Shown here in pieces: positions 7,614 to 33,070 of a stretch of 39,784 nucleotides of DNA. The notes under the pieces were generated by a model. It was not told the DNA's origin and ran no database searches. It worked only from the letters and a program-made list of their open reading frames with translations. The DNA is from a virus. The first letter of the stretch is position 1. Every line of letters starts with the position of its first letter. The position numbers were made by a program, and so were the translations under genes. The stretch covers positions 1 through 39,784 of IMG/VR virus record IMGVR_UViG_3300045988_082269, one strand, 5' to 3'.

Positions 7614-8234
7614 ATGGATGAATACAGACGTCGAGTCGCAAAAGTATTGCAAATCGCACGCGCAAAAAGCGGCCTCAGCCAAGAGCGACTTGCCCGAAAA
7701 ATGGGAGTCAGCAAGACGACCATCGCCAACCGGGAGCAAGGAGTCGTGCCGACAACGTTGGATGAGCTGATCCGGTGGTGCGTCTGCTGCGGCGTCGCCG
7801 CAAAACGCTATACGGACGCCTGCGTTCACCCCGGGCTGCTCGAGAGGCTGAACGACAGCCCGACAGATGCCGAAAAGCGGGAGATCCTGCATCAGCTTGT
7901 GGATGAAATGTCCCCCTACGAGGTGGACGCGTGGTGCTACCTCTATTACGGCGACCACGGCTCCGATCCGGTAGGCGTCATCACCGAGATGCTGGCTAAT
8001 CTGCACACCCTGCTCCGGGATCGCGTCGTGATCGTCAGCATAATCATTAAATTTTATGAGCTGTGCCAGAGGATGCACATCGACCCCGACATCAACGGCG
8101 TGCATCCGATCATGGACATCCTGTATCAGGCTCGAGACTGCGGAGAGGCCGCAATCGGCAAGCAGGCAAGCAGCTACTCCATCAACAAGGAGGACGTGGA
8201 CAATGCCAAGACCCCGAAAAGGCCAGCGCGCTGA
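7614..8234 (+). CDS. XRE-family HTH regulator with an unknown C-terminal domain, 206 aa
   Basis: ATG 7614 follows AAAGGAG. HTH segment LSQERLARKMGVSKTTIANREQG. Overlaps the integrase start by 32 nt. Confidence 0.7.
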   Translation: MDEYRRRVAKVLQIARAKSGLSQERLARKMGVSKTTIANREQGVVPTTLDELIRWCVCCGVAAKRYTDACVHPGLLERLNDSPTDAEKREILHQLVDEMSPYEVDAWCYLYYGDHGSDPVGVITEMLANLHTLLRDRVVIVSIIIKFYELCQRMHIDPDINGVHPIMDILYQARDCGEAAIGKQASSYSINKEDVDNAKTPKRPAR

Positions 8235-9354
8235 CGGCCTATATCAATGCAAGCGCAAGATGCCCGATGGCAAGTATAAGGTCTTCTATGGCCACACCAA
8301 GACCGAGGCGGAGGGAAAATATATTGAGGCTCTGCGGCAGAAGCAGGAAGAGCAGGCCGCTGCGGATCTTTTCGAGACCGTTTCCGCGAAATATTGGGAG
8401 AAGCTTCTGGGGCGCATCAAGCCGGGCACAGATAGTACCTACAAGTCCAATTATGAGCGGTGCGTGGCATACTTTGCGGGGAAGCACATGGACGAAATAA
8501 CGCCCGCAATGGTCGCCAATTTTGGTCAGCGTCTCAAGGATGAGGGGCTTTCGACCAGCACCATCCGCAACGGAATGAGCGTGCTGCGGGGAATCCTGAA
8601 ATTCTGGCGGCTGGACAGCGGATCCTCTTATAACCCGATGCAGGATGTTTCCGCACCCGCCGGGAAACCCGCCGTGGAGCGTGAGCCGCCCACCGACAGA
8701 GAGCTTGCGCTGTTCCGTGCGCATCCGGAAGGCTTTGGGCTGTGCGCATGGATGCTCATGTACACCGGTTGCCGCTTGGGTGAGCTCATCGCCCTGCAAT
8801 GGGATGACATCGACTTTCAGGCCGACAAAATATACATAACTAAGAACGTTTCTTGGGCTGGCGGCGGAACGCGGATACAGACGCCCAAAACATCCAACGG
8901 AGTCCGCACCATCCCCCTGCTGCCACACCTCAAGCAGCTGCTCGAGCCGCTGAAAGCCGCGCCGAAAGTCTATGTCATCGGTGGGCTGACAAGACCTTTG
9001 ACAGATGCCGAATACCACAACCGGTGGCTCCAATACTGCACGTCACTGGGGCTTGTGCGCCCAAGTGAGAGCAAGACCCGATACAGAGACAAGCGGCGTA
9101 GCGCAAAAGCAGCCGTCAGCCCTCTTCCGCCGGTCATGGAGCCGACCGTTACCGCGCACCAATTCCGGCACTCGTTCGCGTCTGACCTCTACGACGCCGG
9201 TGTGGGCGTGTTAGAGGCCAAAAAAATTATGGGTCACTCCGACATAGCGACAACCTACAAGATCTACACCCACATCCGGGAGCGTAAGCTCAAAGACGCC
9301 ACCCAAAAGATGATTGCTTACTATGCCGAGAATGACCCCAAACGCGAAAAGTAG
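8203..9354 (+). CDS. int: Tyrosine recombinase (phage integrase), 383 aa
   Basis: ATG 8203 follows AAGGAGG. C-terminal catalytic signature HQFRHSFASDLY...GHSDIATTYKIYTHI. Confidence 0.9.
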   Translation: MPRPRKGQRADGLYQCKRKMPDGKYKVFYGHTKTEAEGKYIEALRQKQEEQAAADLFETVSAKYWEKLLGRIKPGTDSTYKSNYERCVAYFAGKHMDEITPAMVANFGQRLKDEGLSTSTIRNGMSVLRGILKFWRLDSGSSYNPMQDVSAPAGKPAVEREPPTDRELALFRAHPEGFGLCAWMLMYTGCRLGELIALQWDDIDFQADKIYITKNVSWAGGGTRIQTPKTSNGVRTIPLLPHLKQLLEPLKAAPKVYVIGGLTRPLTDAEYHNRWLQYCTSLGLVRPSESKTRYRDKRRSAKAAVSPLPPVMEPTVTAHQFRHSFASDLYDAGVGVLEAKKIMGHSDIATTYKIYTHIRERKLKDATQKMIAYYAENDPKREK

Positions 9355-9428: not shown

Positions 9429-9438
9429 TTGAAAGAAA

Positions 9439-9490
9439 CCCGCATGATTACTGGATATTCCAGAAGTCATGCGGGCTTTCTTGTTGCTTT
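9439..9490 (+). terminator. Intrinsic terminator after int and the tRNA-like core
   Basis: Stem CCCGCATGA (9439-9447)/TCATGCGGG (9467-9475), followed by CTTTCTTGTTGCTTT. Confidence 0.65.
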
Positions 9491-9569: not shown

Positions 9570-10214
9570 TCAGTCTGCGTCCGCGATGCACTCCCAATAG
9601 ACAGCTGCCTTGCCGTCCACCGCGTCTTGGTCGCGCAAAAATGCGGCAGTCATATCGGCGTAAAAATTGGGATTGTCCACGCTGTAAGACTTGGCGACCT
9701 TGCTGTAATCGCTGTACATCATGTTGAGCACCGCCCAAAAATCGTCCTTGTTGCAGTCAAGGCCGCGCTGAGTCATAAGCTGGACGGCCTGCTCATACGG
9801 CCAATGTGCACCGGTTGTGCCGTCGGCGTTGACCATTTTTTCTGTCCACTCCTTGGCCTCATCGTGGGTCAAGTGCTGTCTGGGCATTTTGACCGTCCGG
9901 CTGGATGCGCCGCCGTGGTCGTACTGGCCGCGGGTGTGTTCCCAGTCGTCTCCCTGCGCAAAACCGATGCGAGGCATACGGCGGTCATAGTTATCCGCGT
10001 CCGGATAGCGGGGCATGGGGTCAGGGTCAATATACCGGTTGTTTTCCCGGATTTCCCACGAGCGGCGAGGCTCCCGTTCGCCCTCTTCCAGCCGACGCAG
10101 ACGACGTTCGAGGTCGCGCTCTTTGCGCTCGCGCTCAACCTCGGCCGGATCATATTTCGGGGTGTTGCTGTGGTCTCGCAGCATCATCATACGGCGAAAA
10201 TTAGTCTTGCCCAT
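9570..10214 (-). CDS. Cargo-operon protein 5: highly charged R/E-rich N-terminus plus globular C-terminal domain, 214 aa
   Basis: RBS GAGGAGG. 13-nt gap to the upstream gene. No motif recognised. Confidence 0.7.
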   Translation of the reverse strand: MGKTNFRRMMMLRDHSNTPKYDPAEVERERKERDLERRLRRLEEGEREPRRSWEIRENNRYIDPDPMPRYPDADNYDRRMPRIGFAQGDDWEHTRGQYDHGGASSRTVKMPRQHLTHDEAKEWTEKMVNADGTTGAHWPYEQAVQLMTQRGLDCNKDDFWAVLNMMYSDYSKVAKSYSVDNPNFYADMTAAFLRDQDAVDGKAAVYWECIADAD

Positions 10215-10227
10215 AATCTACACCTCC

Positions 10228-10599
10228 TCAAGAAATGGACGCAGGCGCACCAGCGTGGGAACGGCAGAAGCAGCCAAGATACTTGAACGTGCCGGTGCCG
10301 GTCGCAGACGTTGCCACACGGGTAGCATAGCGGGTGCGGGCGTGGATGCTCTCAGCGGTTGCCTGAGCGCAGTTGCAGTCTGTCAGAGGGTATGTGGTCG
10401 TACCTGCGCCGATGGTAATAACCACAGGGGCGTTGATGGTGGTCGTGTCCGGGATGCTCTGGGCAACCACGATGCAATACTTCTCTCCGTTCTGGTATGC
10501 GCCAGCAGGGATGTTGATGGTCAGCGTGTCATTGGCGAACGTGACCGCCTGACTGACGACCAAGTGCGGGCAGAGTTTGCAGCTTGTTTTGCAAGCCAT
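10228..10599 (-). CDS. Cargo-operon protein 4: small Cys-bracketed beta-rich protein, 123 aa
   Basis: RBS AGGAGG. N-terminal CKTSCKLC, internal CNC and C-terminal GCFC. Loosely reminiscent of CotY/CotZ/ExsY-type Cys-rich spore-surface proteins. Confidence 0.7.
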   Translation of the reverse strand: MACKTSCKLCPHLVVSQAVTFANDTLTINIPAGAYQNGEKYCIVVAQSIPDTTTINAPVVITIGAGTTTYPLTDCNCAQATAESIHARTRYATRVATSATGTGTFKYLGCFCRSHAGAPASIS

Positions 10600-10613
10600 A
10601 ATGTTTTCCTCCT

Positions 10614-10649
10614 AAAAAATCAGGGGCAGAGGTGTCTTACCCCTGCCCC
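10614..10649 (-). terminator. Strong intrinsic terminator between cargo genes 3 and 4
   Basis: Minus strand reads GGGGCAGGGGT-AAGAC-ACCTCTGCCCC, then TGATTTTTT. The next RBS follows immediately. Confidence 0.7.
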
Positions 10650-10684
10650 GATGGTTCACCCGGTGTTATCGGGGAGTGTGTTGG

Positions 10685-11554
10685 TTAGCAGCCGCAGCAG
10701 TTCACGCCCACGTTGGGGTTTGCCACCTGATAAGCGGGAATCGGACGAGGATTGACCCGGTTCAGGATGGTGTCGGTCTGCTGGGACATCACGGTGGTCA
10801 GAAGCGCATTCTGCCGATCCTGAGAAGCGGCGAACTTCAGGCTCTGGTTCTCAGCGGTCAGAGTTGCGATCTTGTCCTGCGTGAAGTAGTCCATCATGCT
10901 GCGGAAGTTGGCGTTGCAGTTGTCCACGATGGCGCGGGCGTTGTCTGCGATAGCCTGACGGGTAGCACAGTCCTCCGTTGCGATGGTATACTTCAGGTCG
11001 CCGATCAGCTGCTTGTTCTCGCAGCAGCAAGATGCAAGCTGCGTGGCAAGTGCGGTCTGCCCAGCCTGCCGTGCGTTGCCTTCCTGCATGATGGCAAGGC
11101 TGATGGCATTGTCGCCGTTGGACACGCTGCGTTCCAGACCGTTCACAAGCTGTGCGTTCTGGTAGCCAAGCTGACAGATGGCCTGATTGGTGCCAGCAAA
11201 TCCGCCAGCAATAGCGGCGTTGAGGGTGTTCATCTGTGCGAGTTGGTCATAGCCCAGAGAGCAGATACCGCTCTGGATGCCTGCCAGAGAGCGGGAGGTA
11301 TCCTGCTGGTAGAAGCCTTCAGACAGAGCTGCGCGGGTGTCTGCACCGCCCTGACCAGTTGCGCCAGTGCCGACCAGATAGGGGATGTAGCTGTTCATGC
11401 CGTTGTCACCACCGTTCCGGCCATAGCCGTTTGTACCCCAGCCGAAGATGATAGCGAGGATGATGACAGCCCACAGACCTTCGTTGCCGAAGAATCCGCC
11501 GTTGTTGTTGCCGCCGTCCTGCCCAGCCAGATAGCCAGTTGCAAAATCGTCCAT
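10685..11554 (-). CDS. Cargo-operon protein 3: Gly/Asn-rich N-terminus, single TM helix, long Cys-punctuated helical ectodomain ending in NCCGC, 289 aa
   Basis: ORF trimmed to ATG 11552-11554, after GAAAGGAG. TM segment LWAVIILAIIFGW. Cys motifs ICSLGY, ICQLGY, SCCCEN and a terminal CCGC. Confidence 0.7.
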   Translation of the reverse strand: MDDFATGYLAGQDGGNNNGGFFGNEGLWAVIILAIIFGWGTNGYGRNGGDNGMNSYIPYLVGTGATGQGGADTRAALSEGFYQQDTSRSLAGIQSGICSLGYDQLAQMNTLNAAIAGGFAGTNQAICQLGYQNAQLVNGLERSVSNGDNAISLAIMQEGNARQAGQTALATQLASCCCENKQLIGDLKYTIATEDCATRQAIADNARAIVDNCNANFRSMMDYFTQDKIATLTAENQSLKFAASQDRQNALLTTVMSQQTDTILNRVNPRPIPAYQVANPNVGVNCCGC

Positions 11555-11675
11555 AACAAAACTCCTTTCAGTTTTGCGTATGCTATCCCACCGCCGTATG
11601 CGATGGGCGAAGCCAAACAAAAGCGGTTTTTGTCAAGTCCGCAAAACTGAGAAGCGTTTCGCTTAGAGGGATGTG

Positions 11676-11927
11676 TTATCGGGGCAGCGTCAGATTCAGG
11701 ACGCTTGCCAGCTGGTTCAGGTCGATGCCACGCTCTTTGGCAAGGTTCTGCGCCATCGTTCGGAGCTGTGCTTCGTTCTTGCCTTGAATCAGGTTCAAGC
11801 CCTGCATGATAGGAGCATTCTGCCCGCTCAACTGCTGGATAAGCCCCATCGGGTTTTGTCCAGCGCGAGCCAGATTTGCAAGCTGCATGATGGGGCTGTG
11901 AGTAATCATATCAAACGGAGAGGGCAT
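11676..11927 (-). CDS. Cargo-operon protein 2: small Q/L-rich protein with repeated PIMQ motif, 83 aa
   Basis: RBS AAGGAG. 3-nt gap to the upstream gene. Confidence 0.65.
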   Translation of the reverse strand: MPSPFDMITHSPIMQLANLARAGQNPMGLIQQLSGQNAPIMQGLNLIQGKNEAQLRTMAQNLAKERGIDLNQLASVLNLTLPR

Positions 11928-11930
11928 CGC

Positions 11931-12449
11931 TTATTCTCCTTTCTTCGCTGCGGCAGTGGGCTTAGAAAAGCTCTTCTGCCACTTTTCCAGCTCATCCAGC
12001 CTGTGGACGAGAGTGCTATACTCCTCAGTAGGCACATACCGCTGTGTCGGTGCAGCGGTCTTTTGTGCCTGCTGCGCCTGCATCTGCTGCCATGCTTCCG
12101 GGCTGTAAAACTCCTGCACATAGGATTCACAGGTGTCCGGGTTGAGCCGCTTGCAGTAGATCACGCCGCTGCGCAAGTCTGGGCAGTAGGTCGGTCTGCC
12201 GTACAGATCAGACGGTATTGCCAAAAACTCCTCCTTGCTGGACACAGGTCTGCCAAGCAGCCAGCCGCCGTCCTGTGCCGACTGCTGAACAGGCTGTTGC
12301 CCATTCATCGGCTGCGGACGCTGCGGTTGTGCCTGCTGCATCTGCGTACTCGGTAGGGGAGCGGCAAGACCTACCGTTCCCATGCCGCCGTAAGGATTGA
12401 CAGGCTGTTGCGGAACGTAGGGCGTTCCGGGTGTCGGATAATAGCTCAT
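11931..12449 (-). CDS. Cargo-operon protein 1: Pro/Gln-rich N-terminus plus Cys-containing C-terminal domain, 172 aa
   Basis: ORF trimmed to ATG 12447-12449, after AAGGAGGG. Confidence 0.65.
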   Translation of the reverse strand: MSYYPTPGTPYVPQQPVNPYGGMGTVGLAAPLPSTQMQQAQPQRPQPMNGQQPVQQSAQDGGWLLGRPVSSKEEFLAIPSDLYGRPTYCPDLRSGVIYCKRLNPDTCESYVQEFYSPEAWQQMQAQQAQKTAAPTQRYVPTEEYSTLVHRLDELEKWQKSFSKPTAAAKKGE

Positions 12450-12495
12450 AAAACATCCCTCCTTGTGCATCCAGTGTATCGCATCGGCAAAAAGT

Positions 12496-12525
12496 GAAGG
12501 ACAACGAAGGTACAACGAAGGACAA
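12496..12525. repeat. Tandem 10-11-bp repeat GAAGG(T)ACAAC x3 in the divergent regulatory region
   Basis: GAAGGACAAC GAAGGTACAAC GAAGGACAA read directly, 47-76 nt upstream of the 12449 start. Confidence 0.85.
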
Positions 12526-12599
12526 AAAAGCGTCCACACTGCGAAAGGACAGCGTGGGAAAAAAATACGTTCAACGGGTATAATATTTTTGAAAAAATC

Positions 12600-12628
12600 T
12601 TGACTTTTGCGCCCAATGGGTGTATATT
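12600..12628 (+). promoter_or_regulatory. Sigma-70-type promoter of the dual-HTH/AP2 operon (-35 TTGACT, 17 nt, -10 TATATT)
   Basis: Near-consensus hexamers with a 17-nt spacer, 53 nt upstream of ATG 12682. Confidence 0.65.
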
Positions 12629-12681
12629 ATAGACAGTAAAGGAAACCAAAATCGCACAACTTTGAAATGGAGTGAACAAAG

Positions 12682-13278
12682 ATGGCAACTGCAAAAGAAA
12701 TTGGAATCGGAATAAAGAATGCCCGTCTTGCCGTCGGTATCACGCAAGCAGAGTTAGCTCGTAGACTTGGCGTTACCCCTCAAGCCATCAGCCAATATGA
12801 ACGAGGAGAAAAAAAGCCTAAAATTGAAACAATCAAAAAAATAGCAGATGCATTGGGTGTAAGTTGGTTTCAACTATCTCATCTTGATGATTTGGCTGCT
12901 ACTTCTGAGGCAAGAGTTTTGGACAAAAAGGAAGTATACCAAAGTATAGCGGTTGATCATACTACCGCTGAACTTTTTGTTATGGCTTCTGAACCGGAAG
13001 CATCCCGTGTGGCGTTTTTCAACAACGTGACCATGACTATCCCGGACGATGCTTCCGGCTGCATCGACATGGACGCCGAAAAGGAGCGGCTGTCCGACAT
13101 CTGGGATCTGGCGCACCTGTCCATGCGGGAGCTGATCTCCCGCACCGGCCTGTCGCAGACCGCTTTTGCAAAATGCGCGGGCATCCCGCTACGCACGGTG
13201 CAGAACTGGTGTGCCGGAAGCCGGGACTGCCCGGCATACGTCAGATTTTTGCTGGCGGAGCACTATAAGTTGCTGTGA
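12682..13278 (+). CDS. Dual-HTH regulator (N-terminal XRE HTH plus a second C-terminal HTH), 198 aa
   Basis: N-terminal ITQAELARRLGVTPQAISQYERGEKKP. C-terminal LSMRELISRTGLSQTAFAKCAGIPLRTVQNW. The N-terminal half is AT-rich and the C-terminal half is GC-rich. Confidence 0.75.
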   Translation: MATAKEIGIGIKNARLAVGITQAELARRLGVTPQAISQYERGEKKPKIETIKKIADALGVSWFQLSHLDDLAATSEARVLDKKEVYQSIAVDHTTAELFVMASEPEASRVAFFNNVTMTIPDDASGCIDMDAEKERLSDIWDLAHLSMRELISRTGLSQTAFAKCAGIPLRTVQNWCAGSRDCPAYVRFLLAEHYKLL

Positions 13279-13288
13279 GGTGGCCGCT

Positions 13289-14026
13289 GTGACGAAAATT
13301 TCTCCCGGAGACCGCTTCGGGCACTGGACTGTCCTTGCCCCGTCTCCGTCCCGCCCCTATTACTTTTTCTGCCGATGTGATTGCGGCAGTGTAAAGGACG
13401 TCTACCGCAGCAGCCTGCTGCAGGGCACCAGCACCTGCTGCCCCTCCTGCTCCCACCGTACCCCCAGCGGCGCAAAGAAGGCCGCAAGGAAGGGGCTTTC
13501 CAAAGCCGCCCTCGCCGCCGCCCAAAAAAAGTACACCGGAACCACCGTCTCCGGCTGGCAGATCCTTGACGTGCTTCCCTCGTCAGGCACCCGCCGGGGT
13601 CTCCGGTGTCGGGCAGTCTGCCCTGTCTGCGGCAGACCCACCATCACCGCTCTGGGGCGGATCACAGCCTCAAACCACATCCGAAGATGCTCCGGATGCA
13701 GCCACGACATCTCCAAGCCCTCTGGTGCCCTCCATGTAGTCGCCTATACGGATGGTTCCAGCCTCGCCAGCGTCCGCAAGCGTCTGGATGGCACCATCAA
13801 CAAAAACTCCTCCACCGGCGTCAACGGCGTTACCCTCCGTCCGGATGGACGCTATCACGCCTATATCAACTTCCGGCGCAAGCAGCTGCATCTCGGCAGC
13901 TACCCCAATCTGGAAGCCGCTGCCGCCGCCCGGAAAAAGGCAGAAGCGGCGATTTATGGCGAGTATCTTGACCAGCATGAAGGCTGGGAAGAAGAGCTAA
14001 AAGAAAAGCTGAAAGACAAAAAATAG
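13289..14026 (+). CDS. AP2/ERF-like DNA-binding protein with two N-terminal four-Cys zinc-ribbon repeats, 245 aa
   Basis: GTG 13289 follows GAGGTGG. Repeats GHWTVL...CRCDCG...CCPSCSH and SGWQILDV...CPVCG...CSGCSH. AP2-like GVNGVTLRPDGRYHAYINFRRKQLHLGSYPNLEAAAAAR. Confidence 0.7.
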   Translation: MTKISPGDRFGHWTVLAPSPSRPYYFFCRCDCGSVKDVYRSSLLQGTSTCCPSCSHRTPSGAKKAARKGLSKAALAAAQKKYTGTTVSGWQILDVLPSSGTRRGLRCRAVCPVCGRPTITALGRITASNHIRRCSGCSHDISKPSGALHVVAYTDGSSLASVRKRLDGTINKNSSTGVNGVTLRPDGRYHAYINFRRKQLHLGSYPNLEAAAAARKKAEAAIYGEYLDQHEGWEEELKEKLKDKK

Positions 14027-14031
14027 AAAAA

Positions 14032-14061
14032 CCCCCGATGCTCCAAACGGAACACCGGGGG
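14032..14061. terminator. Bidirectional terminator between convergent genes
   Basis: Stem CCCCCG/CGGGGG, with TTTTTCTATTTTTT following on the minus strand. Confidence 0.6.
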
Positions 14062-14066
14062 GTGCT

Positions 14067-14348
14067 TTACTCAAAAACTTTTGCAATGCCTTTTAGCCGG
14101 TAGCCTATCGCCGTCCGGCTGTAATGTGTTCGTGCTGCAATGTCCGGCAGAGGGAGCCGCTCAACGTACCGCAGTAAGGCTATCTTACGGTCTACCCTCC
14201 CAAGCGGTGTGCTTTTGATGGCGGCGGTCATCTGCTGTCGGTCAAGTCCTTGCAGCGCAGCGGGCAGCACCACACGAGCCGCCGCCACAGGCAGCACCGA
14301 GCCAAAAAGGTTGCGGCAGCTGTCCGGCGTTACGCACCATAGTGCCAA
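14067..14348 (-). CDS. Sigma-70 region-4-like HTH protein, 93 aa as drawn (TTG start); possibly the 3' part of a longer frameshifted gene
   Basis: VDRKIALLRYVERLPLPDIAARTHYSRTAIGYRLKGI resembles sigma region 4/ArpU-type HTH. No good RBS at its own start. Confidence 0.6.
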   Translation of the reverse strand: MALWCVTPDSCRNLFGSVLPVAAARVVLPAALQGLDRQQMTAAIKSTPLGRVDRKIALLRYVERLPLPDIAARTHYSRTAIGYRLKGIAKVFE

Positions 14349-14520
14349 GCACGGAAAACCGGTGACAAAACGTCACCATTTTGACAACGTCGGCAAAATG
14401 GTATGTTTTCGTGAGGCCGCGAAAACGTGCGCAGACCATTTTCGTGATGTGCCGAAATTGCTCTTGTGCGGCGTACATCTCGGTAAAGCCACCGTGATGC
14501 TCGTATGTAGTGCTTTCCAT
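14242..14520 (-). CDS. Hypothetical ORF, 92 aa; strong RBS, but its 3' third overlaps 14067..14348 in another frame
   Basis: AAGGAGG lies 6 nt upstream of ATG 14518-14520. The C-terminal 30 aa are low-complexity, and the ORF is rich in inverted repeats. Confidence 0.45.
   Translation of the reverse strand: MESTTYEHHGGFTEMYAAQEQFRHITKMVCARFRGLTKTYHFADVVKMVTFCHRFSVLGTMVRNAGQLPQPFWLGAACGGGSCGAARCAART
14361..14443. promoter_or_regulatory. Cluster of nested and mutually exclusive inverted repeats (attenuator-like)
   Basis: GGTGAC-AAAAC-GTCACC (14361-14377). ACCATTTTG (14375-14383)/CAAAATGGT (14394-14402). GTTTTCG (14405-14411)/CGAAAAC (14420-14426). A third ACCATTTT at 14436-14443. Confidence 0.5.
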
Positions 14521-14530
14521 GGTATCCTCC

Positions 14531-14797
14531 TTACAGCTGCTTGATGCAGCGATTGGTCAGCTTGCTGTATACATCCTCGTACAGCTCCTGCTTATCGCCG
14601 TTGTAGGTGTACTCAGCATAGATACCGTCACCGTTCACGGTGGTAGACAATAGTGCCTTGTAGTTCTGGAGCGTCTTGCAAGCCCAGACCACAAAGACGT
14701 TTTCGAGGGTGATTTTGGTCTCGCGGTGCGCGTTGTACCACTCAACCAGTGCATTCTTGCACACGCTTTCGTATTCTGCCATACCGGTAATAATCAT
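14531..14797 (-). CDS. Hypothetical phage protein, 88 aa
   Basis: ATG 14795-14797 lies 9 nt after AGGAGG. This is the C-terminal part of the long shadow ORF 14531..15334. Confidence 0.6.
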   Translation of the reverse strand: MIITGMAEYESVCKNALVEWYNAHRETKITLENVFVVWACKTLQNYKALLSTTVNGDGIYAEYTYNGDKQELYEDVYSKLTNRCIKQL

Positions 14798-14811: not shown

Positions 14812-15060
14812 TTACTCCTTTCCCTGCATCTGATTGAGGACGTGATCGGCGTGGATGGCGGCAGACGTGAAGGAGTTGTTCTCCCACCACGCCACGAGGG
14901 AAGCGACGACGGTGATGCCGGTGGTGATGATCTGCTCCAGCTGCGCCGATTCGATGGGGAGCGGGGAGTGGCCGGTTGCGCTCAAAATCTGATTGGTCAG
15001 TGCCAGCGCGAGGACGGCGGTGCGTGCAATGGTTCCGGCGGAAATTTTGTTGGTAGTCAT
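14812..15060 (-). CDS. Holin (phiLC3/SPP1-type), 82 aa
   Basis: ATG 15058-15060 follows AAAGGAG. Two TM segments and the WWENNSFTSAA signature. Confidence 0.75.
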   Translation of the reverse strand: MTTNKISAGTIARTAVLALALTNQILSATGHSPLPIESAQLEQIITTGITVVASLVAWWENNSFTSAAIHADHVLNQMQGKE

Positions 15061-15074
15061 GGTGTTGTCTCCTT

Positions 15075-15404
15075 TCAGTTGTCGTGGATCGGCAGCGACT
15101 TTGCGCGGTTGTAAAGCTCCGTGCCGGTACCGTTGCCGCCAAGTCTGTGATAACTGTTGTATAAATACTCGATGTTTTTGAGGCCGGTCGTGTCGATCCG
15201 GCCTTGCTCGATGTAGTGCTGGCACGCCTGATACAGCCGGTCATGCAGGATGGCAAGCAAGCCCTCCTTGATGGCCTTGCGTTCGGCGTCGTCTGCCTTG
15301 ACTCGCTTCGCCAGCCGTCGATATCCGGCCACAAGCCCCGCGCTGATAAGCCCGAAAAGCCATGTCGCCCAGTAGTCGAGGGTGGTCTTGAGTAGCTGCT
15401 CCAT
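15075..15404 (-). CDS. N-terminally membrane-anchored protein in the lysis cassette (possible second holin or antiholin), 109 aa
   Basis: ATG 15402-15404 follows GGGAGGGG. TM segment YWATWLFGLISAGLVAGY, then a soluble helical domain. Confidence 0.6.
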   Translation of the reverse strand: MEQLLKTTLDYWATWLFGLISAGLVAGYRRLAKRVKADDAERKAIKEGLLAILHDRLYQACQHYIEQGRIDTTGLKNIEYLYNSYHRLGGNGTGTELYNRAKSLPIHDN

Positions 15405-15409
15405 CGGTA

Positions 15410-16072
15410 TCACCCCTCCCGGAGCATGTCCAGCCCCTTTTTTGCGATAATGGCGGCGTAGTCCTTGTAGGCGTGGGAAAGGTCTGCGTTGCCCGTGATG
15501 CCCGGCACGCTGGCGGTGCTGGTATACTGCCACATCCCAAAAGGCCATGCCGGGGTCGGCTTGTCGTCGTGGTATGCAGCCACCCACACGTCGTACTTGC
15601 GCAGTGCAGCCCCGCCCATGTACAGCCGGGTCTCCCCGAAGTTGAGACCTGTGTAGAGCAGGGCATAGAAGCCCCACTGCTCGATGGTCGCCAGCGCATA
15701 CGCGGTCAGGTCGGTCAGTGCCTGCTTTCTGAGCTTCTTGAGCTTGTTGTCCTCCACATCCACGCAGACCGGCAGCTCGAAGGTTTTCCCGGTCAGCGCA
15801 GTTTTGAGCAGAGCCAGCTCTGCGTCGGCACTGGTATGCGAGACGGCGTAGGTGTAGTAGTACACGCCCACCGGGATCCCCAGCCGCTTGCACTCGGCAT
15901 AGTTGCGCTCAAACGTCGGGTCGATGTACAGCCCGTCCTTGCGCTTGCTCAGCTTGCTGTTGGTGGATACCGTCTTGAGCATCACACCGTCAATCTTTCT
16001 GCTGGCCTTGACCGCATCCCAGTTGATATCGCCCTGCCAGCGGGAAACGTCTAATATGGTTTTTGCCATCAT
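15410..16072 (-). CDS. Endolysin, glycoside hydrolase family 25 muramidase, 220 aa
   Basis: DVSRWQGDINW, GVYYYTYA and VCVDVED motifs typical of GH25. No separate wall-binding domain is evident. Confidence 0.85.
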   Translation of the reverse strand: MMAKTILDVSRWQGDINWDAVKASRKIDGVMLKTVSTNSKLSKRKDGLYIDPTFERNYAECKRLGIPVGVYYYTYAVSHTSADAELALLKTALTGKTFELPVCVDVEDNKLKKLRKQALTDLTAYALATIEQWGFYALLYTGLNFGETRLYMGGAALRKYDVWVAAYHDDKPTPAWPFGMWQYTSTASVPGITGNADLSHAYKDYAAIIAKKGLDMLREG

Positions 16073-16111: not shown

Positions 16112-18793
16112 TTAATAGGCAAATTCTCTATTTTCGCCTGCTCCAATGCGTACAATTTTTACTTTTCTTTCTTTTTTATTGATGCAAAAAATGTCAAAGC
16201 ACTGTTCGCTTGTAGTCCCAAGCGTTCTCGTCTGTGCGCCTTCTTCTCGGATAAAGCAGTCGGCGTTAGTCACAACCATGTGTGTGCCATGCCACTCAAT
16301 AAGTGCATCTCTGTGCGTATGTCCAGCAAGCCAACACACAAGTGTGCCTTTGTGTGCAGAGAATTCTTCCGTTTTTGACGTGTATCCGCTTATGACTTTC
16401 CCAATTTTTTCAGCATTTACAACCAGTGTACTTGTCCCAAAAGGCCGTTCTGAAGATGTCCATAGTGGCACATGAGAGAAGACAACGCATAGCCAATCAT
16501 TGGAGGGAAGATTTAAAGAGCTTTTGAGCCATGCAATTTGTTCTTCGCTTATGGAAAAATACCACTCTTTATTATATTTGGATATATCCAAGCCGTCAGC
16601 ATAGTCCATACAGTTCACGGAAATGTAACGGATTTTATTGGTTTTATCGTCGGAATAAAAATACGTTCCATTTCCGTTTTCAGGATACACAATTTCCGAT
16701 TTTGCCTTTTCTTCATCAGAGCGATAATACAAATTGTACGCTTCATCGGTGGAGATATTGTATTGATTTTTTCCACCATATGCCCATTCATGATTTCCTA
16801 TAGTCTTTAGCATTGGCACGTCAAAGAACAAATCGCGAAGCTCTATCATGTCATCAACAATAGCGTTTTTGCCTTTCTCGTCTGAATTCCATGCAGTCTG
16901 CCAATCTCCTCCTCCAAGAATGGTTTTTATCGCACACGATGTTTTAATTCGTCTCATAAGAGCAGGCGAATGTTTTGTGTTCCGCTGAATGTGAATGTCT
17001 GTGATAAATGCAAATGCAAAGCTGTTAAAGCTAGCAATATTTTCAAGAACTTCTTTTTCTTTCTGAGACATATAATCTCTATAATAATCGGGTATATGAA
17101 AACGATTATTAACCACATAAACATGGAGATATTTATGCACTTGGCCCGCAGATATAGGGGAATTATCTTTGTTCCGAATTAAAATCGTATAATATCTCTC
17201 TGGATACACATTGCAATAAAATGTTCCATCAAGCCATACGCCAATGTTTGCTGCGAAGTCTTTATACATATATCTCTTAGAGTAAGTGCCATCTTCTAGT
17301 ATAAATTCTTCGACTTCTACGTCAATTGTGTCTGGAGAGGAAATCATAATAGTTTCTTTTTGCGGAGGGCTGAACAAACTTGTAACAACTCGAATGTCTG
17401 ACGGCGTAAAAGGGATAGTAATATTTGTTGCTTGATTATAAGTAAACGTATTTGTTATATCAGCACAATACGGTTTAGCAACAACGTCATGCGATTTTTT
17501 GCTCAAGGCAGCCATTACAATATCTTCGCCAGTTGGAACATCTTCAAAATCGGTATTGCTATCATTTTGTATGGATAACCAAAGCCCAGTATCTTCCTTA
17601 CGGATCATTACTTCTTTAGTCCATACGTCTTTGTATGAAATATTAAATTTTCCTACGCATTTGATTTTGATGTCACAATTTGATTTTGGGCAGTATAGTG
17701 CCGCTCTTTTTGTGGTATTTGGGACGTAAGCTGAATCCAATTTTTTATTATTGACTGTACCTTTTAGGATAATTATTGGATATACGTCAACATCCTCTCC
17801 GTTATCAGAGGTATACAATGGGGCTCCTTGAATTTCATCAGCAGATATACACGCGCTAATCAACAGTTCATTCTGGCCTGGAGTTAAATAACCCGTTGAG
17901 ATTGCGATGTATTTTGCATTTTCTGGCTTGATGACATACATCTTAGATTTGATGACGTTGTTTGAAGAACTGTTTTTCACATATCCAACAGTTTTCATGC
18001 TTTCATCAAGGAACGTCACAAAATTCGTATATGCAGGAGAAGACGCTGTTACAATATATCTGTTTGTATTATATGGAGACAAATCGAAATACCATGTATA
18101 ATAGGCCGTTTGAGAAAAGTCTCTGTCCAAATAATAACTGCCTTGTACAACTTTTTGTGCACCTAAATTAACCAGATTCCTTTTTGCATTGCTAACTAAA
18201 TCTTCCTTTATCTCCCCAACCGCATCCCCCGTCGCTTTCGCATCCGCTGCCTTGCCTTCCAGCTTGAGGGTTGGATCTGTGACAAACTTCGCCGCTGCAT
18301 CCTCCGCCCGTTTCTGGGCGTCCTGACAGGCGGTGACGTAGGCCGTCCACTGATCCGACGTGAGGCCGGTGACGTAGAAAAACGACCGCACAGACACGGG
18401 GTCAACGTAGGGCGCACCGGTGACGCGGCAGATGATCGGAAAGGTATTGAGCTTGTACCCAGTGTTGTTGACCACGCAGAGGGAGACCGCCACCTTGCCG
18501 TTGACGCGCAAAGCCTGCTCTGCAAGCTCGAGGGTGACGACGTTGGGGCTGCTGCTGGACACCACGACGGCCTTGCGGGTTCCGCTGGACAGCTGGATGG
18601 TGTCATACCAGCCGGTGTTGTTGGCACCTTGGCCGTGATACTCCACGGTATAGACCGCGCCGCTGGGCGCGGAGTACGGCACGCCGCCGTCGTAGAGCGT
18701 GAGGCCAATAAACCGGCTCTGGGAGTCGGACTGCATGACGTCGATCACCTGCGGCAGACCCGGGTTATTGAAATCAATTGTGATATTGTGCAT
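16112..18793 (-). CDS. Receptor-binding/baseplate protein: BppU-like N-terminus, AT-rich central region, C-terminal metallophosphoesterase domain, 893 aa
   Basis: ATG 18791-18793 follows AAAGGAGG. N-terminal ITIDFNNPG...DSQSRFIGLTLYDGG. C-terminal motifs ITDIH, GGGDW, GNHEW, SHVP and GHTHRD (about 17020..16112). Confidence 0.8.
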   Translation of the reverse strand: MHNITIDFNNPGLPQVIDVMQSDSQSRFIGLTLYDGGVPYSAPSGAVYTVEYHGQGANNTGWYDTIQLSSGTRKAVVVSSSSPNVVTLELAEQALRVNGKVAVSLCVVNNTGYKLNTFPIICRVTGAPYVDPVSVRSFFYVTGLTSDQWTAYVTACQDAQKRAEDAAAKFVTDPTLKLEGKAADAKATGDAVGEIKEDLVSNAKRNLVNLGAQKVVQGSYYLDRDFSQTAYYTWYFDLSPYNTNRYIVTASSPAYTNFVTFLDESMKTVGYVKNSSSNNVIKSKMYVIKPENAKYIAISTGYLTPGQNELLISACISADEIQGAPLYTSDNGEDVDVYPIIILKGTVNNKKLDSAYVPNTTKRAALYCPKSNCDIKIKCVGKFNISYKDVWTKEVMIRKEDTGLWLSIQNDSNTDFEDVPTGEDIVMAALSKKSHDVVAKPYCADITNTFTYNQATNITIPFTPSDIRVVTSLFSPPQKETIMISSPDTIDVEVEEFILEDGTYSKRYMYKDFAANIGVWLDGTFYCNVYPERYYTILIRNKDNSPISAGQVHKYLHVYVVNNRFHIPDYYRDYMSQKEKEVLENIASFNSFAFAFITDIHIQRNTKHSPALMRRIKTSCAIKTILGGGDWQTAWNSDEKGKNAIVDDMIELRDLFFDVPMLKTIGNHEWAYGGKNQYNISTDEAYNLYYRSDEEKAKSEIVYPENGNGTYFYSDDKTNKIRYISVNCMDYADGLDISKYNKEWYFSISEEQIAWLKSSLNLPSNDWLCVVFSHVPLWTSSERPFGTSTLVVNAEKIGKVISGYTSKTEEFSAHKGTLVCWLAGHTHRDALIEWHGTHMVVTNADCFIREEGAQTRTLGTTSEQCFDIFCINKKERKVKIVRIGAGENREFAY

Positions 18794-18977
18794 TGTTGTC
18801 CTCCTTTTCGGCCTTGACATACGCGCCGTTGATGTACCGGTAATCGCTCAGGCTGCCGGGCGGCAGGGTGTCTACATAAGTCGCACCTTCCGGCAGGGTT
18901 TTCAGCGCATAGTTCGGGTCGATGCTCCCTGCCGAGGTAATTTCACCCGTACCGGGGAGAAACGTTATCAGATACAT
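18774..18977 (-). CDS. Small tail-associated hypothetical protein, 67 aa
   Basis: RBS GAGGTGAG. Lies between the Tal and RBP genes. Confidence 0.55.
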   Translation of the reverse strand: MYLITFLPGTGEITSAGSIDPNYALKTLPEGATYVDTLPPGSLSDYRYINGAYVKAEKEDNNAQYHN

Positions 18978-32929: not shown

Positions 32930-32946
32930 ATTTGTATCCTCAACAA

Positions 32947-33019
32947 TGCCGCGTGCAGGAGTTGAACCTGCAACGATCCGGTTATGAGCCGGGTGCTCTG
33001 CCTGTTGAGCTAACGCGGC
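32947..33019 (-). tRNA. tRNA-Met (anticodon CAU; could instead be lysidine-type Ile2), 73 nt, no encoded CCA
   Basis: Hand-folded. Acceptor GCCGCGT/ACGCGGC, D-stem GCTC/GAGC, anticodon loop CTCATAA, T-arm GCAGG-TTCAACT-CCTGC, discriminator A. Confidence 0.8.
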
Positions 33020-33070
33020 ACAACAAAAACCTCCCCGATGCACATCACACATCGAGGAGGTTCAAATAAA

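Follow-up and report, generated by a model that had tools for sequence, protein, structure and literature searches.

Five cassette genes in a gut phage genome

This work concerns a group of five genes in a viral genome of 39,784 nucleotides, the IMG/VR record IMGVR_UViG_3300045988_082269, taken over its whole length (positions 1 to 39,784, hereafter the window). The genes, designated g1 to g5 in the order in which they are read, lie on the minus strand from 12449 to 9570, with gaps of 3, 121, 85 and 13 nt, and an AGGAGG-like Shine-Dalgarno (SD) sequence stands ahead of every start (5/5 genes). Both the layout and the strong SDs had been described in an earlier, sequence-only reading and were confirmed by an ORF check. 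Comparative analysis has led us to the conclusion that gut phages carry a conserved and mobile accessory cassette of five genes, of which the region is a "type A" copy. The members of the cassette in the window are as follows.

11931..12449, minus strand: g1, ORF of 172 aa, one of the two universal cassette members
11676..11927, minus strand: g2, ORF of 83 aa, type A allele, starting 3 nt past the g1 stop
10685..11554, minus strand: g3, ORF of 289 aa, the cassette core, an anchor-stalk protein
10228..10599, minus strand: g4, ORF of 123 aa, type A allele of the "cap" slot
9570..10214, minus strand: g5, ORF of 214 aa, with a charged/disordered N-half and a C-terminal DUF7841 domain

The motifs that had been singled out in these proteins were all located, namely PIMQ (twice), GGNNNGGFFGNEG, ICSLGY/ICQLGY, CCC, a terminal NCCGC, CKTSCKLC and GCFC. 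The g1 protein consists of a Y/P/Q-rich N-terminus, a conserved beta-type core of ~55 aa and a C-terminal helix, and belongs to PHROG 21718, a family of unknown function (phrog_21718, HMM E 1.1e-8); g2 is small, helical and M/Q/N-rich. A member of another unknown-function family, PHROG 16490 (phrog_16490, HMM E 7.5e-39), g3 begins with an acidic Gly/Asn-rich tail, followed by a Trp-flanked hydrophobic segment of 13-15 residues (~26-39) and a Gly-rich linker. Beyond the linker come tandem G-x-C-x-LGY repeats, an invariant CCC, a conserved LQAENQxLKxAASQ stretch that, judged by its sequence, is probably coiled-coil or helical, a PxPAYxVxNP motif and a Cys/Gly tail. The earlier description of g3 as a hydrophobically anchored, Cys-rich protein is thus supported by the hydrophobic segment, its flanking charges and the alignments.

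In g4, which had been seen as bracketed by cysteines, CKTSCKLC and GCFC are both present, but the C-terminal GCFC is not conserved across the family, in which the invariant cysteines are C7, C10, C42 and C77. The g4 homologues number 2,070, with 63-85% identity within the aligned sample. The AlphaFold2 (AF2) model of g4 (pLDDT 73.6) is composed of beta strands and one helix; it has no significant PDB neighbor, the best matches being OB-fold-like (E ~0.6), and on this ground a jelly roll of the Ena/BclA type with an N-terminal Cys connector was rejected. Residues 109-206 of g5 match Pfam DUF7841 (PF25223) with 92.2 bits against a cutoff of 25.2 (E 3e-26), and the charged/disordered N-half contains one long helix at 23-47. 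The DUF7841 domain is modeled as a five-helix bundle (AF2 pLDDT >90 at residues ~110-210), and a fold search of BFVD matched only further DUF7841 proteins. A known fold for this domain was also sought in the PDB and rejected, for although the model is confident, the PDB gives nothing (HIV matrix, E ~0.6).

At E<=1, DUF7841 in g5 is the only Pfam family found, with none for g1-g4, and NCBIfam returns zero families for all five proteins. No enzymatic or NTPase domain was found among the five in Pfam, and PADLOC-DB 2.0 yields no defense-system match, apart from one chance-level match of g2 (E 0.026), so that a known anti-phage defense system was rejected. Searches of PDB sequences found none with single sequences, and zero matches with profiles of g3, g4, g5 and an alternative g4 allele described below. 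When 64 g1 and 36 g3 family members were scanned singly against Pfam, chance coiled-coil matches, one Collagen fusion and one sub-threshold Baculo_PEP_C match (22.5 bits vs. a cutoff of 38) appeared, and no Pfam family in the 64 of g1. Neither g4 nor the ~140-aa alternative allele matches Ena (DUF3992), the BclA C-terminal domain or C1q-TNF in Pfam, and in the literature no paper was found that mentions DUF7841 or phrog_16490. The statement that these genes have no recognizable function therefore stands for all five, with the correction that g5 does match a family, uncharacterized DUF7841.

Conserved order and interchangeable alleles

One genome per species was scanned for the cassette, which yielded 80 loci. 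The order of g1 (130-190 aa), a small protein (65-83 aa), g3, a beta-rich Cys protein (130-150 aa) and a charged/disordered protein (140-260 aa) recurs in about 80 loci, that is, in nearly all. This recurrence outside the present phage supports the idea that the five genes are a real functional unit, and the absence of co-occurrence elsewhere, which the sequence-only reading had named as a reason to give up that idea, is not what we found. An iterated HMM places a member of the g1 family immediately ahead of g3 in 72 of 84 loci. The alleles of the window type were detected in 35 loci for g2, 25 for g4 and 12 for g5. The g1 and g3 genes are universal, and the g2, g4 and g5 slots carry interchangeable, non-homologous alleles. 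The alternative in the g2 slot is a Q/N-rich protein of 65-76 aa; in the g4 slot it is a beta-rich, Cys-containing family of ~140 aa (phrog_20016), present in ~40 loci; and in the g5 slot it is a protein that is helical, then R/G/S/Y-rich and disordered, then helical again. That the A and B alleles in the three slots might be homologous was considered and rejected, with hhalign probabilities below 1%. The combinations of g2 and g4 alleles are AA in 18 loci, BB in 30 and mixed in 10, and DUF7841 co-occurs only with the window-type g4.

The g3 protein is itself mosaic, since internal-deletion variants and chimeras of N-halves and C-halves exist. Its homologues, numerous in gut metagenomes, form more than 7,000 clusters at 90% identity and 2,378 at 50% identity, 393 of the latter with E<=1e-30, and no homologue cluster bears an informative source name.

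Hosts and genomic contexts

Most of the 80 loci come from gut Oscillospiraceae, Acutalibacteraceae, Lachnospiraceae and Bacilli metagenome-assembled genomes (MAGs), with Anaerotruncus colihominis, Agathobaculum desmolans, Muriventricola aceti and Enterocloster hominis among the cultured hosts. Clear homologues of g3 are also carried by many crAss-like phages, by viruses associated with Methanomassiliicoccales and by C3_41T2LP, a cultured phage of Bacteroides uniformis. The g3 proteins of these crAss-like, Bacteroides and archaeal viruses have in common the Trp-flanked hydrophobic segment, the Gly-rich linker, CCC, "ENSQLxLAASQQAQ", PxPAYV and the Cys/Gly tail. Moreover, in at least 10 crAss-like genomes a DUF7841 gene adjoins the g3-like gene, and the pair is followed by a beta-rich Cys protein of ~140-180 aa and then by a protein with a beta-domain and a coiled coil. 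The cassette appears to be confined to phages of obligate anaerobes, and a collection of 50,697 genomes gave no homologue from any cultured phage whose host is an aerobe or a facultative anaerobe.

Some further observations concern these distant relatives. A motif, KG-x-[N/D]-P-x3-hydrophobic, is common to g2, the type-B g2 alleles and the N-termini of the g3-like proteins of loci L084, L089, L090 and L091. The motif hints that g2 may be a detached N-terminal extension of the crAss-like/archaeal g3 (gene fission or fusion), but this idea was rejected, as only the motif speaks for it and HMM searches gave it no support. In the crAss-like genome cr52_1 (L089, 3075-6964) several genes contain in-frame stops when translated with table 11, as would be expected if a stop codon has been reassigned in this phage. 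Here, and likewise in vir215 and L087, the genes shortly upstream of the cassette include one for a reverse transcriptase.

Two genomic contexts recur, one directly after the lysis genes and the other inside the head module. In ~22-24 Firmicutes loci an endolysin domain (amidase, GH25, NlpC/P60, CHAP or M23) is found within 5.5 kb upstream, and the position after lysis genes is also seen in the window itself, in bajarodcaudo virus 5 and in Dulem virus 33. The order in cr52_1 and cr6_1 is holin, LysB-like gene, DUF7841 and g3-like gene. In cr116_1 the block comes right after the holin and carboxypeptidase, between the endolysin and the gp31-like and major capsid genes, at a site which is empty in its relative crAss001. 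Head-module copies were found in 12 loci, one of them Dulem virus 35, where Phage_min_cap2 lies on one side of the cassette and the scaffold/major capsid genes on the other. Hence the claim that the genes lie outside every canonical phage module stands only in part, because relatives carry them directly after lysis genes or inside the head module.

Phage-plasmids add two variants. In the Rep3/ParA phage-plasmids L086-L088, lysis genes are followed by DUF7841 with no other cassette gene. In another phage-plasmid (L093, 1699-3066), the protein P0068 carries a collagen-repeat, fibre-like N-part fused to a stretch corresponding to g3 residues 152-289, and g4 and g5 follow. Taken together, the relatives that lack the cassette and the differing sites of those that have it indicate that the unit is mobile and dispensable. 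In the proteins P0300 and P0303, which are relatives of the window region 14067-14520 joined to g5, DUF7841 is fused to the product of the ORF 14242-14520 or to that of the sigma-r4-like gene, which indicates that deletions removed g1-g4 in close relatives.

Terminators, control region and att side

Three non-coding features accompany the genes in the window.

10613..10649, minus strand: hairpin and T-run, intrinsic-terminator-like, between g3 and g4 (terminator scan)
12450..12681, minus strand: control region ahead of g1, common to the cassette and the divergent HTH gene (hairpin and T-run, repeats)
9436..9478, no strand assigned: 20-nt inverted repeat, bidirectional-terminator-like, between g5 and the integrase gene (85% complementary)

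The strong terminator that had been noticed between g3 and the ribosome-binding site of g4 was confirmed. The hairpin and T-run occupy 10649..10623. The stem has 11 pairs, 8 of them GC, followed by TGATTTTTTA, and the site is the second strongest terminator-like one of the region. Of 64 related loci, 33 have an analogous hairpin with a T-run behind g3, with sequences unrelated among the loci. Another terminator-like hairpin and T-run is found upstream of g1 at 12557..12534, and the repeats reported in this region were likewise verified as AAGGACAACGA/AGGTACAACGA with 11-nt spacing at 12497-12526. The divergent regulator (12682-13278), which had been called a dual-HTH protein, has one strong HTH, the second being weaker. 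A sigma-70 consensus scan of the coding strand found no sigma-70-like promoter upstream of g1. As regards the hallmarks of a moron, absence at the same site in close relatives is observed (crAss001; L086-L088), and for a promoter and terminator of its own the cassette shows terminator-like hairpins upstream of g1, after g3 and after g5 but no sigma-70 consensus promoter on the coding strand. Rfam gives no match within the control regions of the window. In two type-A relatives a RAGATH-31 RNA (RF03101) lies just upstream of the cassette, ahead of a small extra ORF and g1, scoring 75 bits in L056 (6780-6832, above the gathering score) and 60 bits in L007 (2048-2100, E 2.6e-10); the window has no copy of it.

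On the other side, a tyrosine integrase gene (8056-9354, plus strand) converges on g5, and the inverted repeat between the two is flanked by AAAAGTAGT(G/A) repeats within the presumed attP region. In integrated relatives, an opposite-strand tRNA gene stands directly after g5 (L007, 5172-5245; L010, which is Anaerotruncus colihominis DSM 17241, 10259-10331; L016, 3543-3613), and this tRNA marks the prophage end, or att site, beside the cassette. The converging integrase and the tRNA genes of relatives make it reasonable to regard the cassette as the last block before att. Of the earlier placement in a slot next to attP, the att-proximal position of the cassette is upheld, and attP itself is deduced from the integrase and the tRNA genes of relatives.

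Neighboring genes

Upstream of the cassette, the same strand carries in order a GH25 gene, a transmembrane (TM) protein gene, a holin gene, a DUF6275 gene and a sigma-like gene, the last being separated from g1 by two genes of the opposite strand.

16072..15410, minus strand: GH25 endolysin (domain match)
15404..15075, minus strand: TM protein of 109 aa (phrog_4105)
15060..14812, minus strand: holin of 82 aa (phrog_263, E 2e-26)
14797..14531, minus strand: DUF6275 protein of 88 aa (domain match)
14067..14348, minus strand: small sigma-70 region-4-like regulator (Sigma70_r4_2, E 0.002; phrog_36, E 0.001)
12682-14026, plus strand: HTH regulator and HNH-endonuclease-like gene pair, between the sigma-like gene and g1

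A strong terminator (14061..14032) follows the sigma-region-4-like gene. The plus-strand HTH/HNH pair looks like an insertion of the homing-endonuclease type; in relatives, the sigma-like gene and a terminator are followed directly by g1. A terminator is commonly present between the small sigma-like gene and g1 in relatives. Furthermore, many loci, the head-module copies included, have an HTH gene of 66-78 aa, homologous-looking to the sigma-like gene, immediately ahead of the cassette. The small sigma-region-4-like gene is probably the travelling regulator of the cassette.

Several side observations were made in the same surroundings. The three short genes of the lysis block are hidden in the ORF list under longer ORFs in alternative frames, and the HNH-endonuclease-like protein is Cys-rich with an AP2 domain (phrog_374/99). 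The cassette is often accompanied by a ~125-aa papain/C39-like protein ("NPNPH..VGDC..RA") and by a ~105-150-aa HExxH metallopeptidase-like protein of the "PolyVal" type; such small genes were seen upstream in the loci L033, L015, L024, L026 and L049, and at L084 3886-4233 and 6466-6861 and L090 7770-8234. A 902-aa protein of the tail region (16112-18820, minus strand) has a C-terminal calcineurin-like phosphoesterase domain (Metallophos), and two related loci have this domain upstream of the cassette as well. The phage genome also carries a tRNA-Met gene (32946-33020, minus strand) near the start of the packaging/structural block.

Predicted topology and proposed role

Among the five proteins a hydrophobic segment is present in g3 only, and g1, g2, g4 and g5 have neither signal peptide nor TM segment. 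Over 179 diverse g3 homologues, the N-tail has a median length of 29 aa and contains 0.35 K+R and 3.2 D+E, and the C side of the segment carries more K+R than the N side in 53% of them and less in 11%. The positive-inside rule and the requirements for the translocation of N-tails are established knowledge, and from the short, acidic, K/R-free tail taken together with this rule g3 is predicted to insert N-out/C-in. With the C-terminal part of g3 inside and no signal peptide on its partners, the simplest picture is a complex that probably lies on the cytoplasmic face of the membrane. Since signal peptides are missing and the Cys-rich domain of g3 would be cytoplasmic, an exported, disulfide-cross-linked surface layer is unlikely.

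In the arrangement we envisage, the helical stalk and the Cys/Gly tail of g3 would face the cytoplasm, and the g3 Cys clusters, like the four invariant cysteines of g4, would bind metal or stay reduced, forming no disulfides. The g1, g2 and g5 proteins would be cytoplasmic, disorder-rich and serve as adaptors, and attenuation at the g3 terminator may render g1-g3 more abundant than g4-g5. The complex would act on the cytoplasmic membrane with, or just after, the holin/endolysin genes. Its task there could be to adjust the timing of lysis or the integrity of the membrane, or else to prevent events at the membrane's inner face. The cassette as a whole would be an optional fitness module and not a core function.

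We tentatively propose a late-made, membrane-tethered accessory complex acting with or just after the lysis genes as the leading, though uncertain, candidate for the role of the cassette. In its support we count the conserved order, the mixing of alleles, the large g3 family and the g3/DUF7841 adjacency in crAss-like phages, together with the recurrent position after lysis genes, the occurrence of DUF7841 alone after such genes, the topology, the dispensability and the conserved terminators. Several points weigh against it. Neither sequence nor fold searches link the cassette to a lysis protein, be it a holin, an antiholin, a spanin or another kind, and a canonical holin and endolysin are already present in the phage. 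The 12 head-module loci have no lysis genes nearby, so adjacency to lysis genes may be only a preferred insertion site. The hydrophobic segment of g3, with its 13-15 residues, is short for a bilayer, the topology is a predicted one, and the N-tails of crAss-like and archaeal g3 are longer, with some Lys. The anchor-less fusion of collagen repeats to the C-half of g3 fits a fibre better than a membrane regulator. Finally, the cassette of the window stands apart from the late operon, with no promoter that could be recognized.

Two simpler identities were tried for g3 and rejected. It is not taken for the holin of the phage, as it matches no holin in Pfam or PHROG, and the phrog_263 holin and a second TM protein follow the GH25 endolysin. 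Nor is it taken for a spanin, as the K/R-free acidic N-tail predicts N-out, the partners have no lipobox or signal peptide, and the hosts are mostly Clostridia. A bolder form of the proposal, possible though somewhat doubtful, would be a hitherto unrecognized multi-protein machine common to phages of the three major groups of anaerobic gut hosts, Clostridia/Bacilli, Bacteroidota and methanogenic archaea, in which a g3 stalk with Cys/metal clusters and swappable partners controls a late membrane event, for example by redox- or metal-gated lysis timing or by a new exclusion mechanism.

Alternative explanations

The head-module copies give weight to an accessory virion component, an explanation that we regard as unlikely but serious, in which g3, bearing Cys knots, would form an oligomeric fibre of coiled coils or else be ejected and insert into a membrane. 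The cap or head would be supplied by g4 or its alternative allele, and g1, g2 and g5 would help in assembly or be packaged along with the rest. The phage could do without such a structure, as with head fibres, decoration proteins or cargo injected with the DNA. It would agree with the co-orientation of the cassette with late genes almost everywhere, with the 12 loci between Phage_min_cap2 and the scaffold/major capsid genes and with the location just upstream of the gp31-like and major capsid genes in cr116_1, and the small HExxH peptidase genes are frequent neighbors. The N/C-half mosaicism of g3 and the swapping of alleles in the cap slot are as in fibre and receptor-binding genes, the collagen-repeat fusion P0068 keeps g4 and g5 downstream, and the terminator after g3 suggests a high copy number. 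Similarity searches lend it two matches, a faint one of g1 to a tail-fibre PHROG (E 0.043) and one of the gene after the cap slot in C3_41T2LP to phrog_473, "virion structural protein" (E 1.4e-8), but the latter is limited to a coiled-coil tail. The search for virion structural homologues, by sequence and by fold, found no clear homology and no structural family. Besides, the invariant Trp-flanked hydrophobic segment and the K/R-free N-tail resemble a membrane anchor, the cassette has its own regulator and flanking terminators, and in the window it lies beyond the lysis genes, beside attP. The close relative crAss001, whose virion structure has reportedly been solved in detail, lacks the entire cassette at the syntenic site. 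Less probable still is a moron expressed by the prophage for superinfection exclusion or defense, which the sequence-only reading had named among its alternatives, with membrane-bound g3 and its cytoplasmic partners blocking DNA entry or aborting infection. Its att-proximal place, with the tRNA/att site right after g5 in integrated relatives, the flanking terminators and the separate control region divergent from an HTH regulator are what such a moron would have, as are membrane anchoring, a patchy, accessory distribution among close relatives and the shuffling of alleles, which is typical of conflict systems; the OB-fold-like matches of g4, faint and not significant, could suggest nucleic-acid binding. 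Known exclusion proteins, however, are single genes, against five here, PADLOC gives no match, the five proteins have no enzymatic or NTPase domain, and no promoter for expression in the lysogen was detected. The cassette is also found within late structural/lysis blocks of virulent crAss-like phages and within head modules, which argues against this role.

The sequence-only reading had proposed a disulfide-cross-linked envelope or spore-surface assembly, with a YjcZ-like and a CotY/ExsY-like protein, delivered as lysogenic conversion. The Cys/Gly-rich composition and the low-complexity Q/P/Y- and R/Y-rich regions do recall coat proteins, many hosts are Clostridia, and the slot is att-proximal. 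The alternative g4 allele looks like a BclA C-terminal domain by eye, but its profile finds nothing among PDB sequences, and the Baculo_PEP_C match of one homologue is sub-threshold. The resemblance to YjcZ does not hold, as there is no NCBIfam match at E<=1 and g3 has 289 aa vs. tens of residues; moreover YjcZ is restricted to endospore formers, and g3 is represented by homologues among crAss-like phages, Bacteroides phages and Methanomassiliicoccales viruses. Likewise, the resemblance to CotY/CotZ/ExsY finds no Pfam match (Spore_coat_CotZ) for g3 or g4 at E<=1, and the PDB-sequence profiles came out empty. The partners of g3 have no signal peptide, its C-domain is predicted to be cytoplasmic, and most loci are co-oriented with late genes and not with lysogeny genes. 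The linkage of g3 and DUF7841 in phages of non-sporulating phyla such as Bacteroidota, with g3 also in archaeal viruses, rules out a spore-specific role. Contradicted by host range, missing export signals and negative family tests, the surface module has become very improbable.

Comparison with known systems

The proposed complex on the cytoplasmic membrane can be set beside lysis-control accessories such as the T4 holin T with its antiholins RI and RIII, LysA/LysB of P2 and i-spanins, for example lambda Rz. These resemble the cassette in being bitopic, with conserved Cys and a large domain that is conserved and probably helical, in having small soluble partners, and in their genes, which lie beside holin and endolysin genes and are sometimes optional for plaques; a LysB/FtsL-like gene precedes the g3-like one in cr52_1 and cr6_1. 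However, they have no sequence or fold similarity to the cassette, which has no lipoprotein partner, occurs in monoderm and archaeal hosts and comprises five genes with three swappable slots. In addition, the large domain of spanins and of T4 T/RI is periplasmic, in contrast to the predicted N-out/C-in orientation of g3. Exclusion morons (HK97 gp15, lactococcal Sie2009, P22 SieA) are similarly self-contained, with their own terminators, inserted in late regions or on the att side, missing from close relatives, and membrane-anchored in their product, but they are single small genes expressed from the prophage, whereas the five-gene cassette is also found in virulent crAss-like phages.

Another membrane protein, p16.7 of phi29, is an anchored coiled-coil organizer of phage DNA and has, like g3, an N-terminal anchor, a helical or coiled-coil stalk and a cytoplasmic functional end, to which the faint OB-fold-like matches of the g4 model may be added. 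It differs in being an early, single protein of 130 aa with no homology, the cassette being found in late regions. Fibrous accessories (phi29 gp8.5, T4 fibritin, collagen-like tail fibres) and fibres of the BclA type share the logic of anchor, stalk and cap, the Cys knots, alternative cap domains, the natural fusion to collagen repeats and dispensability. Unlike these, g3 has an anchor that is hydrophobic in the manner of membrane segments, and the window proteins have no Collagen, BclA_C, C1q or fibre match. By HMM score g5, g3 and g1 are members of DUF7841, PHROG 16490 and PHROG 21718, respectively, families that carry no functional annotation, and their association as a single cassette seems to be undescribed so far. 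No characterized system of the same sequence, fold or architecture was found.

Biological significance

Conserved modules of unknown function are common in phage genomes. The g3 family is found in phages of three host phyla, always in the company of a fixed set of partner slots. Being so widespread and so well conserved, the module probably encodes a general step in the life of gut phages that is absent from textbook models, for which lysis control, membrane handling, virion accessories and exclusion are the candidates. Two cultured systems carry it, the prophage of Anaerotruncus colihominis DSM 17241, located at ~1.67-1.69 Mb of NZ_CP102255.1, and Bacteroides phage C3_41T2LP, which infects B. 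uniformis MB20-41. Linking PHROG 16490, PHROG 21718, DUF7841 and the alternative alleles would also label tens of thousands of genes that are now annotated as "hypothetical".

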